Positions 21,368 through 59,738 of a stretch of DNA of 64,000 nucleotides are shown piece after piece (the first letter of the stretch is position 1; each line of letters begins with the position of its first letter). The notes beneath the pieces were generated by a model. It was not told where the DNA came from and did not search any database. It saw only the letters and a program-made list of their open reading frames with translations. Origin of the DNA: Octopus vulgaris (taxonomy: Eukaryota). Position numbers and translations under genes: made by a program. The DNA is taken from contig OX597819.1 of NCBI GenBank assembly GCA_951406725.2, positions 102,796,001 through 102,860,000 on the forward strand, read 5' to 3'.

Positions 21368-21405
21368 TGCACTGAAGAGAATTGACTAGTCGAAGCACGT
21401 ATGTA
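21368..21405 (+). ncRNA. Degenerate minimal type-I hammerhead ribozyme motif
   Basis: UGCA-CUGAAGA-GAAUUGACUAGUC-GAAG-CAC-GUA-UGUA. Stem I is 4 bp, GAAA is changed to GAAG and stem II is weak. Lies ~25 bp from a (TA)n tract. Confidence 0.45.
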
Positions 21406-21899
21406 TATTTATAAAATAAAAGCTCTTTAAATACATATAAAATAATTTAATCTTGTCATGATTTGTTTTTCAACTTGTGTAAACATGAACGAAATTAGTT
21501 TCTTTTTTCACACTGCCTACTTTATTCTTTACAATATGTGCATGTGTTTGCATGTATATGTGTCTTGTATATGAAGGGACTGCATAAACCAACCACACCA
21601 CAATATAAACTTAGAAATGTCAAGGGGGGATAATGATTGTTACACTATAACAGTCAAACCATAGATGTAAAACTAGGTACTTCTACTTCGTTTTAATTTT
21701 TCCTATATCTGAGCTTGATTTTACAAACTTAACAAATGAAAGTCAATACATAGAGTATGTTTTTAGTAGCCGAGTAGCTACAGTGACAGCAGTTTCTTTC
21801 TCTCTCTCACTCACACACACACTCACACACACGTCTCCCATTGGTGAAATAAGTATAAGAAACATCAGATTTGTTTTGCGCCATGCAAAAAGCCTAGGA

Positions 21900-23560
21900 A
21901 CAACTCAGAGGTTTTGAAAACTTATCTAAATCCATTGCAATGCTGAAAACTCTTCCGTATCATCAGCAGGTATTTCAGGGTCACAAGCTTCTTACCACGT
22001 AACCGGGGCAGGGAGAACTGATTTAATCTTCACCTACGGAAGTGTTCTACTTGTGACCTATTATCAATAATAGCAACCTTGTGTTTGTTTAAGTTGCCGA
22101 GCCAAGCGCTATTGGGTGTCGCTTCAGTTGTTTGGTTTCAATACCTATCTTTTGCAGGAAATAGAGCAGTGATGCAGCTGAAAAAGCTCAGCAGCCGACT
22201 TCAATGGTAATTGAGGCCGAATGCCATCACTTGGCAAGGTCGCTGTCAAGTAAGTTCTGATATTTCATTTTTTTACCTGGGGGGAGTTATCGAGTCTTTC
22301 CTCCCAGGACACTCTGAGTTCGACAACGATGATTGCTTTTATATTCCAGGGAAGCAGTAATGTGTCTAGTCAGACTGATGGTAACATTATCCACCCCACC
22401 CCTTGGGAAGACAATCAACTTTCATCACCAAGTCTGAGGCTGAATACAAAATACAAGACGGTACCCTATAAATGCTTTCGCCCAAGGAGCTTTGTTGCCT
22501 TCTTTTAAGAATCTGATACCGTTTGGTGGTAGTAACTGGTGTTTATTAGCCCTCATCTTTTGGAGATCAGTCTACCTAGCAACTTGCTCATGAACCTTGT
22601 CATTTCTCCACTCGTCTCGGCCTGCTTCCAGTCCCTGAATCACAATATGATTCATGGAGCAAAGACTTGCTTCACATTATTGCAGTATGGTTCTGTTTCT
22701 TTGTCCCATATTTTAAAGTTATATCGGTTGGCGACATCATACAGGAACGACAATCTTCCCTGTCAGTGATCCAGAGTTTCTCCCAGGCCAGTGGCTGCTT
22801 GAGTACCTGATCCCACACTGGAAACATACATTTCAAGAAGCTGACTTTTATCAAATGTCCTTAGCCTGTTGTGGAATTGGATTTTGGTGTCTCCAACATT
22901 GTTAATATCCTAAAGATATAATCAGAATTTTTCCCAAGTTAAGGGACTCCTTTTGTCGGAAATCCAGAGTCCTGAATGCAGAAGATATCATTTCCTTTAA
23001 AGATATTCGGGCTCCGAGTTTTTACTGGATCGTACTTCAATGTGTCAATCTTTTCCAATGAGATTAATGTCCGCTGTGCTCCTTTGACTGATGATGTCAT
23101 AAACGTTGTGCCGTCATGAACACCTATGAGTAATAATAGGTCGTCTGCCTCCTGATCCAGCGCTTCATCAATTTGTGAAGTACTGCTGATACTCTCAAAT
23201 AATGTCTCGGAGTAGTGTCAGATTTTTTAAATTCCTGCTGTTGCTCCTTCCATTTCCATTTGCTTTGATGCATCTTCACTCTACATTCACTCATAAATAC
23301 TCTCATCACAACCGTTGCATCTTCTTTAATTTTCACTCTCCCGTCTTGCTGAATCCAGTCCCACATACCAAAAGTTCTTATCCAAGTTATTGTCCCTACA
23401 TTTCATACTCTTAAGCTGATTAAACTCCTGTCACTCCTCAGTCTCTCTGGGGGTATTTTTCTTGATGTGTATTGCTGACTTCCTGGTGCAGTGCTCGGTG
23501 CTGCAATCCCTAACAATGTTGTGTGCCGTCTTTCCGAGCTGTCGGCTATTTTTCATGTAT
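21900..23560 (-). mobile_element. Decayed RLE-type LINE, HERO-like 3' half
   Basis: Minus-strand translations give LAWEKLW, HI...GRDEWRNDKV (WRH-like), IIVVELRVSWEE...KK.KYQNL and an EVG-like motif, i.e. the ELTVPWE...K..KY..L...EVG RLE signature. Confidence 0.7.
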
Positions 23561-23699
23561 GTAATTGAGTCTCTTCCTTAACTTCTATGTGCCTTTCGCA
23601 CGGTCATCACACACATACATATTATGTATGTATATATAATATATAAATATATTTGAATATATATATATATATATATATATATATATATATATATATATA

Positions 23700-24105
23700 T
23701 GCGTAGGAGTGGCTGTGTGGTAAGTAACTTGATTATGAACCACATGGTTCCGGGTTCGGTCCCACTGTGTGGCACCTTGGGCAAGTGTCTTCTACTATAG
23801 TCTCAGGCCGACCAAAGCCTTGTGAGTGGATTTGGTAGACGGAAACTGAAAGAAGCCCATCGTATATATGTATATATATATATGTGTGTTTGTGTGTCTG
23901 TATCTGTCCCCCACCCAGCATCGCTTGACAACCGATTCTGGTGTGTTTACATTCCCGTAAATTAGCGGTTGGTCATAAGAGAGGGATAAAATATGTACTA
24001 GGCTTACAAAGAATAAGACCTCGGGTGGATTTTCTCGACTGAAGGCGGTGTTCCAGCATGGCCACAGTCAAATGACTGAAACAAGTAACAGAGTAAAGAG
24101 AAAAG
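23700..24105 (+). mobile_element. SINE family B, full-length copy
   Basis: A-box-like tggctgtgtggtaag, B-box ggttcggtccc, body, internal microsatellite and simple-repeat tail. Confidence 0.88.
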
Positions 24106-57803: not shown

Positions 57804-58062
57804 AGAGCACTCCGTCGGTTACGACAACGAGGGTCCCAGCTGGTACGATCAACGGAGCAGCTTACTCATGAAATTAACGTGCTAGTGGCTGAGCACTCCA
57901 CAGACACCTAACCTTGACGTAGTTCTCAGGGGGATTAAGCGTTACACAGAGTGGGATAAAGCTGGACATTTGAAATACAAAGGGAAAAAAGAGCCCTTTG
58001 TATTTCAAAGGTACAACTCATTTTTGCCAGCTCAGTGGACTGGAGCAACGTGAAATAAAGTG
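57804..58062 (-). mobile_element. SINE family D, 5'-truncated
   Basis: Reverse complement of 34580-34807. Confidence 0.8.
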
Positions 58063-58534
58063 GTGTACAGTAAAACTCCAATAGGAGTTTTATCGACCCT
58101 TTTTTGAGACAGTTAAGATGAAAAGTGAGTAAATTAATGGTAGGTGTCCGATAGATCTAGAGAATTGTGTTCCACTGTTTTCGGGTAGGGTAGTTGCAAT
58201 GCCCTTTTCGAAAAGGATTCTGAGTTTTCTAAGAATATTGTGCTTGCAATTAATAATCAAATAGTTTCCTTTGTTAAGAAGTTCTGCGCTTGACTGTAAG
58301 TAATAATTTGCTTCCTGGTTACACATTTGTCGTTGGTCATGCTTTACTGTATATATATATATATATATATATATATATATATATATATAGTGTAGGTATC
58401 AGTTAGAGGGTTTTAAAAGATTTAAGGGATAATTAAATCCAAAGTCGCTCCTGGTTATTACCTGTGTAGGTACAGTCTTTTGTAAGTTTGTTCGGTAGAA
58501 GGTGGTTCGGTTGGTAAGCCGTAGTTTAGGTTAT

Positions 58535-59202
58535 ATAGGAGAAGAAAATGGATATAATAACAATGGAAAACTCGTGGTTTTCGCTAGTATGCCTTTAATT
58601 TAATTAGATAACAAAGAAGGAAGAAGCAGAGATGAAGGTAGCATTTACGATCGTTTGAAGTTACTGGAGTTAGTAAATCTCTTCAGAATGCGAATATAGA
58701 TAGATGCATCGGTTAGGATGCGAAAATAATTGATACATATGTGATGGTAATATAAACGAAGGTCGTAAGTCTTACATTAAATTTTGTTCTTGCGCTGGTA
58801 GATCCGCTAGGTAGAGGTTTGATTGTAGACTGGTTAGTTTCATTGGGTAATTAGGACGGGGTGAGTATTATTTAGGTGCGGTGTTCCTAGTTTAATCAAG
58901 CGCATTTTTTCCGCGCGTGTGTATTCGGTCTGTTTACCAGCGCAAGAACAAAATTTAATATAAGACTTACGACCTTTGTTTATATTACCATCACATATGT
59001 ATTAATTATTTTCGCATCCTAACCGATGAATCCATCTATATTCGCATTCTGAAGAGATTTACTTACACCATAAAATTGAAACGATCGTAAATGCTACCGT
59101 CATCTCTGCTTCTTACTTCTTTATTATCTAATTAAATTTAAAGGCATACCACCGAAAACCACGAATTATCCATTGTTACCATATTCATTTTCTTCTCCTG
59201 TA
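58535..59202. mobile_element. Long foldback element (~270-bp arms) with hammerhead motifs in both polarities
   Basis: Arms ~58535-58806 and ~58926-59202. HHR at 59044-59094(+) and its inverted copy at 58641-58691(-). Region lies between (TA)n and (CA)n. Confidence 0.88.
59044..59094 (+). ncRNA. Minimal type-I hammerhead ribozyme motif with intact core
   Basis: GCAUU-CUGAAGA-GAUUU[ACUUACACCAUA]AAAUU-GAAAC-GAUC-GUA-AAUGC. Stem I 5 bp, perfect palindrome ACGAUCGU as stem III, GUA site. Confidence 0.85.
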
Positions 59203-59436
59203 CACACACACACACACACACACACATGCTTTCCTAAATAAAATTGCCCTGCATGTTTGAATCTAATCAACTGCATTGCATCCTACCGGAGAAACAGTAG
59301 TATACAACCGAGATTCATTCATCAATAACTTTAGTTAAAATTGTATATATATGTTGTATATATATTCATATATTTACATACGTACACATGTGTAAATATA
59401 TCTGTGAATTAATATGATTGTGTGTAGAACAATATA

Positions 59437-59738
59437 TTAATCAATGAAATCTCAACTTAGTCTGAATTCCACGTTTTATTTTTTGTTATTGTTACAAATT
59501 TACAATTTTAGAATATTGAAATAAGTACTTTTATGCATTACGCAGTCATCAGGTTTATGTAGTGACACTCCTTTTCCAGAATTGGCACAGTTGTTAATTT
59601 AGGAATACGACTGTCACTACATAAACCTGATGATTGCATAACGCATGAAAGTACTACTTTATTTCAACATTGTAAGCTTATAAAAATTGCAAATAATAAG
59701 ACGGAAAAATCAAACTAAGTTGGAATTTCATTGATTAA
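59437..59738. mobile_element. Foldback element (~130-bp arms) with hammerhead motifs in both polarities
   Basis: Arms 59437-59567 and 59612-59738. HHR at 59621-59662(+) and decayed inverted copy at 59521-59558(-). Followed by (TA)n. Confidence 0.85.
59621..59662 (+). ncRNA. Minimal type-I hammerhead ribozyme motif
   Basis: AUAAAC-CUGAUGA-U-UGC[AUAAC]GCA-U-GAAA-GUAC-UA-CUUUAU. Palindromic stem III AGUACU, CUA site, one C.C mismatch at the base of stem I. Confidence 0.72.

Follow-up and report, generated by a model that had tools for sequence, protein, structure and literature searches.

Minimal hammerheads in Penelope-like elements and retrozymes

Thousands of minimal hammerhead ribozymes (min-HHRs), both solitary and on opposite strands, have been described as parts of truncated Penelope-like elements (PLEs), in which the opposite-strand pairs lie 100-700 bp apart (Cervera and De la Pena 2014, PMC4209133). 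The supplement of that study lists molluscan examples from Lottia, Crassostrea and Pinctada and none from octopus. Minimal hammerheads of metazoan PLEs were also reported by Lunse 2017, as cited in a review (PMC6765202). PLE insertions carry an inverted, 5'-truncated copy at their 5' end and a tail at one end, and are biased toward TA microsatellites, according to Craig 2021 (PMC8557442). A second related group is formed by the non-LTR retrozymes, which Cervera and De la Pena 2020 (PMC7229834) and Li 2026 (bioRxiv 10.64898/2026.07.22.740005) present as short, non-coding, low-GC elements with type-I hammerheads and a link to PLEs.

The window analyzed here, a 64-kb stretch of the Octopus vulgaris genome, contains ten hammerhead motifs (Table 1). 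They resemble the pseudo-LTR min-HHRs of PLEs in their type-I layout, short stem I and tiny or palindromic stem III, and in that they are mostly solitary and belong to heterogeneous families within one genome (PMC4209133). The two opposite-strand core pairs in the window are 363 and 75 bp apart. In contrast to the published min-HHRs, several stem III palindromes are 6-9 nt long, one stem-loop II measures 80 nt, and the closing pair of stem II in the family of Element A (family A) is G-U instead of G-C. With canonical EN+ PLEs (Penelope/Poseidon, Neptune and Nematis), the window elements share 5' truncation, the inverted 5' copy, the one-end tail and AT-rich or (TA)n targets, as described by Craig 2021 (PMC8557442) and Frangieh 2024 (PMC11167929); in those elements the hammerhead lies just behind the end of the ORF. 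The non-LTR retrozymes share the features named above with the window hosts, but consist of head-to-tail units that each hold a complete hammerhead and give rise to circular RNAs, whereas the window has inverted pairs and minimal, mostly broken motifs, and no such array was found in it.

Taken together, we consider it likely (probability about 0.8) that the ten motifs, carried by eight unrelated short repeats, are the 5'-truncated 3' ends (pseudo-LTRs) of several PLE families, mostly damaged and probably inert. Counting against this reading are the undetected reverse transcriptase (RT) and GIY-YIG domains in the window and the family A tail of 110-140 bp, compared to 30-40 bp in published PLE descriptions.

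Table 1. Hammerhead motifs and the repeats that carry them (positions within the window)
Feature	Position	Strand	Description
Element A	58390..59202	.	minus-strand main copy (58934 to 58390) with (TA)n end; inverted copy 58935-59202, more 5'-truncated, with (CA)n end and without the ~140-bp tail; arms 92% identical
Minimal type-I hammerhead (59049+)	59044..59094	+	core intact, stem I 5-bp, stem III palindromic; predicted cut before 59090; sole strict pass
Main-arm hammerhead of Element A (58686-)	58641..58691	-	G12 mutated in window copy (CAAA)
Short reading frame	58840..58934	-	ends ~150 nt upstream of core; by eye alone similar to a GIY-YIG C-terminus
Element B	59432..59743	.	foldback, decayed hammerhead in each arm, adjoins (TA)n
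Element B plus-arm hammerhead (59627+)	59621-59662	+	core letters intact; mismatched bases at foot of stems I and II
Element B minus-arm hammerhead (59552-)	59519-59557	-	G12 lost (AAAA)
Element C	28141..28392	.	foldback, arms ~90-94% identical; inverted arm begins within stem III palindrome
Element C hammerhead (28275+)	28271-28315	+	core reads CCGAUGA; followed by (CA)n and (TA)n
Element E	49009..49605	.	within Tc1/mariner-type element; inverted arm 49437-49605
Element E hammerhead (49331-)	49224-49337	-	core intact, long stem-loop II
Hammerhead 46940-	46888..46946	-	core letters intact, stem I 6-bp, extra A 5' of GAAA
Hammerhead 45352-	45312..45357	-	classic minimal layout with bulged base after A9 and loop III absent; U16.1 mutated (GCU in N-U-H position)
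Decayed hammerhead 32477-	32438..32482	-	stem II good; N-U-H and stem I broken; (TA)n 54 bp downstream
Decayed hammerhead 21372+	21368..21405	+	GAAG; directly 3' of (TA)n run

Ten motifs and their significance

All ten motifs were found at the coordinates and on the strands given by a first-pass annotation, which had also proposed a comparison with dinucleotide-shuffled controls. The weights of the scan were fixed only after the motifs had been read by eye, and a palindromic stem III was not required. With one defect tolerated, seven of the ten motifs reach a score of at least 10 for stems I and II around the core, far above the controls: 60 local dinucleotide shuffles of the window gave a mean of 0.23 and a maximum of 2 such motifs, and 80 permuted decoy cores run on the real window a mean of 0.275 and a maximum of 3. 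As a further control, the reversed and complement-only window yielded a single match. The hammerhead motifs in the window are therefore real and non-random with respect to shuffles and decoys.

The strength of individual motifs is more uneven than the annotation's count of at least seven with full topology, which proved to be overstated. A strict descriptor is passed by 59049+ alone (shuffle mean 0-0.01, 100 shuffles), which was also the single match of an initial rigid descriptor; allowing loop II to reach 80 nt adds 49331-, with a loop of 70 nt, and brings the count to two of ten (shuffle mean 0.04). The remaining motifs have core or stem defects. CUGANGA, GAAA and N-U-H are all intact in 59049+, 49331-, 46940- and 59627+ and broken in the other six; three of the latter (28275+, 45352- and 32477-) had been counted among the seven full motifs, and the three described as decayed (21372+, 58686- and 59552-) are indeed so. 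In a relaxed scan with two core defects and a low threshold, shuffled sequences yield 0-6 matches, so that the weakest motifs, 21372+, 59552- and 59627+, are non-significant on score alone. Low-scoring candidates at 20018-, 29129- and 427- were at shuffle level and were discarded, as were further CUGANGA sites, such as 44135+, at which the hammerhead is incomplete.

The post hoc tuning of the score and the low-threshold matches in shuffled sequence are what could be said for the motifs having arisen by chance in repeat DNA rich in AT and in hairpins. Given seven motifs against 0.23 and 0.275 in the two controls, and a core that is restored in the majority sequence of family A, this reading is extremely improbable, and for the motif set as a whole a chance origin is refuted by the shuffle and decoy controls. 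It is also these controls that demonstrate non-randomness, and not the differences between stems, which had been likened to covariation; stems of unrelated families cannot show covariation.

Stem III forms a perfect palindrome in four of the ten motifs and a near-perfect one, with a central unpaired base, in 46940-. It is imperfect in 49331-, and those of 32477-, 45352-, 21372+ and 59552- are non-perfect palindromes as well. All four palindromes quoted in support of a mostly palindromic stem III are present, three of them perfect. Pairing of stem III between two copies is predicted to give duplexes of -4.8 to -11.1 kcal/mol.

Host repeats and foldbacks

The ten motifs represent eight independent loci because two pairs form both arms of single insertions. 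Local alignment scores between loci are mostly 15-25, whereas the two arm pairs reach 139 and 286, which bears out the view that several unrelated families are present; three between-locus pairs scoring 50-60 probably reflect microsatellite tails. As a rough sum, the hammerhead-bearing segments make up ~2.9 of the 64 kb (4-5%).

The proposed foldback structure of the hosts and their proximity to (TA)n were both recovered. Inverted arms are found at four of the eight loci, and 71-87% of the bases in the foldback duplexes are predicted to be paired. Downstream of the loci, the closest (TA)n is at a median distance of 248 bp, compared to 1222 bp for random sites (P ~0.005, 3000 draws), with three of the eight loci having no (TA)n in the 2 kb downstream. 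In Element E, 73 bp are duplicated in tandem from the N-U-H triplet onward, and the element also includes 102 bp copied from the neighbouring transposase sequence.

The long duplexes predicted at four loci (250-670 nt) would suit copies that the host retains for a function, either as cut sites in long introns or as long dsRNA hairpins that draw RNA editing or yield small RNAs, and family A was also present in a putative RNA run (its label is guessed; 101 contigs, strand and ends not visible). Such a role is nevertheless very unlikely: a core base is lost in six of the ten motifs and the identity of the arms is down to 83-94%, a pattern resembling neutral decay, and no host exon was identified.

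Truncation and copy state of family A

Copy number and majority sequence data cover one of the eight families. At a likeness of at least 80%, three DNA runs, each from a different organism, yielded 630, 906 and 679 family A contigs; the summed contig depth is no measure of copy number. The G12 base lost in 58686- is intact in 95%, 90% and 96% of the contig depth in these runs. In the variant rows listed (40 of 189), the majority letters leave the 8-pair stem II unbroken and the differences between runs fall in loop II. Depth is ~tenfold lower toward the 5' end (58905-58931 compared to 58851-58877) and is ~halved beyond 58527, where 9, 14 and 10 contigs enter (TA)n. Many copies stop near 58532 and others continue to ~58400; the tail is optional, being present on the main arm of the window copy and absent from its inverted arm. 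Five of the 15 joints listed are strand inversions at differing points, although joints may be affected by the inverted repeat of the reference.

Family A is thus a multi-copy repeat with a majority-intact core and graded 5' truncation. Its truncation, (TA)n ends, optional tail and varied inversion points are hallmarks of PLE insertions. The assignment of the motifs to Penelope-type minimal hammerheads with a type-I layout is borne out.

The first-pass annotation had favoured a retrozyme-like, non-autonomous population. Accordingly, some or all families would be non-autonomous hammerhead elements devoid of ORFs, either non-LTR retrozymes or mini-elements derived from PLEs, whose transcripts are cut and circularised before a PLE enzyme copies them back in trans. 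The window hosts are short and have no detectable ORF, the segment of 46940- is flanked by direct repeats of 36 bp at a spacing of 497 bp, and a decayed copy of 21372+ is found on the same strand ~680 bp upstream; furthermore, retrozymes have been argued to originate from the ends of PLEs and are often monomers (bioRxiv 10.64898/2026.07.22.740005), and the copy-number and truncation data are limited to a single family. The direct repeats, at 47187-47152 and at 46690-46655 with (TA)n behind the second, are copies of a hairpin near 46940-, and the upstream copy of the 21372+ unit, at ~20680-20795, is the more decayed of the two (76% over 74 bp). This same-strand pair, ~20690 and 21372, is the only one in the window. 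Neither the self-alignments nor the tandem-repeat rows listed (150 of 154) contain head-to-tail intact hammerheads or a tandem unit bearing two of them, which leaves the retrozyme reading unsupported. In addition, the motifs are minimal, whereas described retrozymes carry mostly canonical ones in tandems of 150-450 bp (PMC7229834), and the truncation of family A is graded instead of following a fixed unit. As family A behaves like ordinary PLE insertions, we regard the retrozyme-like population as unlikely and not as the best reading.

Search for PLE proteins

RT and GIY-YIG domains were absent from the Pfam results for 131 ORFs and seven read-through frames of the window; the only domain found was a DDE transposase at 48225-48560 (131 of the ~250 listed ORFs of at least 58 aa were searched). 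We therefore infer PLE membership from architecture, and the RT/GIY-YIG ORF is expected to have been lost through truncation in the window copies.

The pattern of core and stem II of 45352- recurs in 40 metagenome loci. Clear cases with a PLE ORF are L008, L011/L032, L012, L013, L024 and L031, and probably L023; the ORF ends 104-105 nt upstream of the motif in L008, L013 and L024, and L012, L013 and L024 match Pfam GIY-YIG weakly (E 0.005-0.0002, below the curated cut-off). At most of the 40 loci no PLE ORF is adjacent to the motif, which, like the fact that one of eight families was tested, counts against the PLE reading. A tblastn search of the window with the PLE proteins from these loci gave nothing below E 0.6, and the family A pattern had no matches in metagenome contigs.

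Upstream of the Element A core, a post hoc GIY-YIG pattern had one match across six frames, in the 58934-58843 frame. For the 31-aa peptide encoded there, no homologue was found among longer proteins, the best Atlas score was 0.75, and it ranked outside the top 12 with a small Poseidon-type GIY-YIG profile. Two phmmer matches were rejected as repetitive proteins that add up weak stretches.

Proposed origin of the window copies

Under the PLE reading, and following the PLE literature, the RT/GIY-YIG protein of the parent element would nick AT-rich DNA and reverse-transcribe its own RNA, beginning at an internal site that lies a few hundred bases 3' of the hammerhead. Early stops of copying would leave short 3' fragments that retain the ribozyme, and a second priming or a template switch could add an inverted truncated copy, yielding the foldback. 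If the parent is active and tandem, pairing of two hammerheads via their palindromic stem III may lead to cleavage 3' of N-U-H; this putative dimer cutting would be slow and perhaps protein-assisted. No intact partner on the same strand appears to be available to the window copies. If a foldback is transcribed by read-through, its two arms are predicted to pair into a long duplex, in which the ribozyme would be buried.

Annotation, novelty and abundance

The suspicion that these sequences are poorly annotated holds for the ribozymes and not for the elements. Rfam returned no match at gathering score for the window. Hammerhead families were absent from the 150 of 283 rows listed and, at E up to 10, from the two sub-regions scanned; the miRNA matches listed are artefacts of microsatellites or foldbacks. 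Rfam-based annotation thus misses the hammerhead motifs of the window. For the elements themselves, 190 PLE families covering 6.83% of the O. vulgaris genome are given in PMC13282606, and the high motif density fits this large Penelope load. Literature searches yielded no octopus-specific hammerhead report, and among their results only a count of 235 Hammerhead_1 matches by Rfam in the giant squid (PMC6962438).

The arrangement of minimal hammerheads in truncated PLEs is already known; the window families are new examples, apparently uncatalogued in octopus, and reveal neither a new kind of element nor a new mechanism. A descriptor scan could aid the classing of the 15% of the O. vulgaris genome that is now 'unknown repeats'. 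A larger importance would arise only if intact copies cleave host RNA or if foldbacks are major editing substrates. It is quite unlikely, in our estimate, that the genome holds tens to hundreds of thousands of PLE hammerheads, among the densest ribozyme loads of invertebrates, with intact long-palindrome copies cutting host transcripts in trans and foldbacks feeding dsRNA to cephalopod editing. Extrapolated with wide error to the 2.8-Gb octopus genome, 1-2 strict motifs per 64 kb would correspond to ~40,000-90,000 and 7-10 relaxed motifs per 64 kb to 300,000-440,000, a density that exceeds the 2,000-9,000 per genome of PMC4209133.

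Hammerhead motifs and controls

The window has a GC content of 36%, is rich in microsatellites and contains many dispersed repeats. The first-pass annotation claimed a population of hammerheads in Penelope- or retrozyme-like elements, and all ten of its motif positions were confirmed. The comparison with shuffled sequence that it proposed as a check shows, within the window, an enrichment of the motifs: a flexible type-I hammerhead scan returned seven motifs at a score of at least 10, versus a mean of 0.23 and a maximum of 2 in 60 local dinucleotide shuffles. The reversed and the complement-only window gave one match, and 80 permuted cores run on the window gave a mean of 0.275 (maximum 3). 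These controls preserve the window's own hairpins and agree with the shuffle result, and there is next to no likelihood that the motifs are chance matches.

Since the weights of the flexible scan were chosen after the motifs had been viewed, a strict descriptor was run in addition. It passes only 59049+ (motifs are named by core position and strand), and also 49331- if a loop II of up to 80 nt is allowed, with shuffle means of 0-0.04. All core bases are present in four of the ten motifs (59049+, 49331-, 46940- and 59627+), two of which carry stem flaws. A core base is lost in the other six. The annotated hammerheads are a real feature but less intact than claimed. Rfam did not detect the motifs.

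Organisation of the hammerhead loci

The ten motifs represent eight loci, apparently unrelated except for two arm pairs. Foldbacks occur at four of the eight, and a downstream (TA)n lies nearer than expected by chance (median 248 vs 1222 bp, P about 0.005). The motif 21372+ has a decayed twin on the same strand, while 45352- has the classic hammerhead layout.

Coordinates of hammerhead-bearing elements and associated features in the window
Feature	Position	Strand	Remarks
Element A, main copy	58934 to (TA)n run at 58390	minus	hammerhead core at 58686
Element A, inverted copy	58935-59202		starts 134 bp further 3'; lacks last roughly 140 bp
Element B	59432-59743		foldback, smaller than element A
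Element C	28141-28392		foldback, smaller than element A
Element E	49009-49605		inside Tc1/mariner-type element (DDE_3, E 5.5e-8)
Tc1/mariner-type element around element E	47198-50258		inverted ends 47198-47423 and 49989-50258, 73% alike
46940- hammerhead	flanking repeats 47187-47152 and 46690-46655	minus	36-bp direct hairpin repeats, 497 bp apart

The region 57200-60500 is represented, wholly or partly, in 20 sequencing runs from five organisms. Of four public runs whose contigs were aligned to element A at 80% likeness, three are DNA runs and contributed 630, 906 and 679 contigs; the fourth, whose RNA nature is only guessed, contributed 101. The loss of G12 at 58657 is judged private to the window copy because the intact base makes up 95%, 90% and 96% of depth. 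Among the 40 of 189 variant rows listed, the majority letters form a stem II of 8 pairs without interruption, and differences between runs (58666-58671) fall in the loop. Towards the 5' end, contig depth falls by a factor of about ten. Many copies stop at 58532 in (TA)n and others have the extension, and 5 of the 15 joints listed are inversions at differing points. Upstream of the core, at a distance of about 150 nt, a 31-codon frame stops. By eye it resembles a GIY-YIG C-terminus, and a post hoc C-terminal pattern matched once over six frames. All database tests of the frame were negative, and the resemblance is a lead only.

The DDE transposase around element E is broken (Pfam DDE_3 at 48225-48560). 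Within element E, 102 bp (49336-49437) duplicate the 3' end of the transposase (48675-48776; 87%), which suggests that nearby target DNA was captured at insertion. The hairpin repeats around 46940- equal the published tail of Penelope-like elements (PLEs) in size. Sequence directly upstream of 32477- (32527-32580) recurs at 57590-57641 (81%) with no hammerhead following.

Three rearrangement boundaries are 2-7 nt away from where a cut is predicted: element C has an inverted arm that begins within the stem III palindrome (28305), the 73-bp tandem of element E begins at the N-U-H cleavage triplet (49232), and one inversion joint of the element A family (58611/58643) falls 2 nt beyond the predicted cut. 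As a lead, cleavage or the palindrome may set some truncation points; three cases are too few to test this.

Origin of the hammerhead copies

Most likely, with a probability of roughly 0.8, the hammerheads belong to 3' ends that several PLE families left behind dead on arrival, a membership that architecture, tested in one of the eight families, would indicate. A PLE protein is reported to nick AT-rich DNA, with reverse transcription beginning at internal positions downstream of the ribozyme; the hammerhead cut depended on the protein, and insertion in vitro could proceed without that cut (Frangieh 2024, PMC11167929). PLE insertions are described as 5'-truncated, and an inverted copy and a tail on one side only are frequent (Craig 2021, PMC8557442). 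In the proposed mechanism, the PLE protein would likewise nick AT-rich DNA and prime reverse transcription internally, 3' of the hammerhead; 5' truncation would then retain the ribozyme in short insertions, given its position close to the 3' end.

Minimal type-I hammerheads are reported not to cut as monomers and to cut weakly as dimers (Cervera 2014, PMC4209133; review PMC6765202). The window copies have no intact partner on the same strand, and pairing is predicted for 71-87% of the bases in the foldback transcripts, so the copies are probably inert; their use by the host is very improbable.

About 2,000-9,000 such hammerheads per genome are reported, in heterogeneous families and mostly solitary, with opposite-strand pairs 100-700 bp apart; they are interpreted as truncated PLEs (Cervera 2014, PMC4209133). 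The window motifs follow this pattern and belong to a kind already described in 2014. Retrozymes are described as units arranged in tandem, each with a complete hammerhead (PMC7229834; Li 2026 bioRxiv), whereas no such units are found in the window, and derivation from non-autonomous retrozyme-like families is unlikely.

For O. vulgaris, PLEs of 190 families are reported to make up 6.83% of the genome and an expansion is placed at about 56 million years (PMC13282606), and Penelope is listed among the coleoid repeats that expanded (PMC8967140). The hammerhead-bearing segments make up roughly 4-5% of the window (a rough sum), so their density requires no additional element class beside the PLEs. 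A literature search found no paper on octopus hammerheads; Lunse 2017, outside that search, may bear on the matter. In giant squid, 235 Rfam hammerhead matches are reported (PMC6962438).

Metagenome counterparts of 45352-

Metagenome contigs contain 40 loci that match the core and stem II pattern of 45352-. In L008, L013 and L024 the hammerhead follows the end of an ORF by 104-105 nt, and in L024 the next ORF begins 126 nt downstream, a tandem layout with the hammerhead between the two ORFs. L012, L013 and L024 have weak Pfam GIY-YIG matches, below the curated cut-off; the majority of the 40 loci have no such ORF beside the motif. As elements of other organisms, these loci support the element type, not the membership of the window copy. 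Penelope-type elements with minimal, intact-looking hammerheads were noted at L008, L012, L013, L023, L024, L011/L032 and L031.

Other repeats in the window

A 289-bp near-perfect hairpin at 37247-37535 (93% self-complementary, predicted -259 kcal/mol) adjoins (TA)n and has no hammerhead core; it is either a MITE or the folded-back end of another repeat. Broken frames at 4955-5700 (+), which by eye resemble a Dong/R4-type LINE protein in its 3' part, had no Pfam match. Those at about 43100-44000 (-), which by eye resemble an L1/Tx1-type reverse transcriptase remnant, had none either, among the ORFs and the one read-through frame tested. A young 505-bp dispersed repeat occurs at 26612-27116 and 62265-62765 in opposite orientations (95% identical). 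At least three abundant SINE-like families are present (6293-6448, 13167-13394, 32995-33475, 16402-16602, 23738-24109, 34578-34817 and others), the one at 32995-33475 in a tandem organisation of roughly 180 bp.
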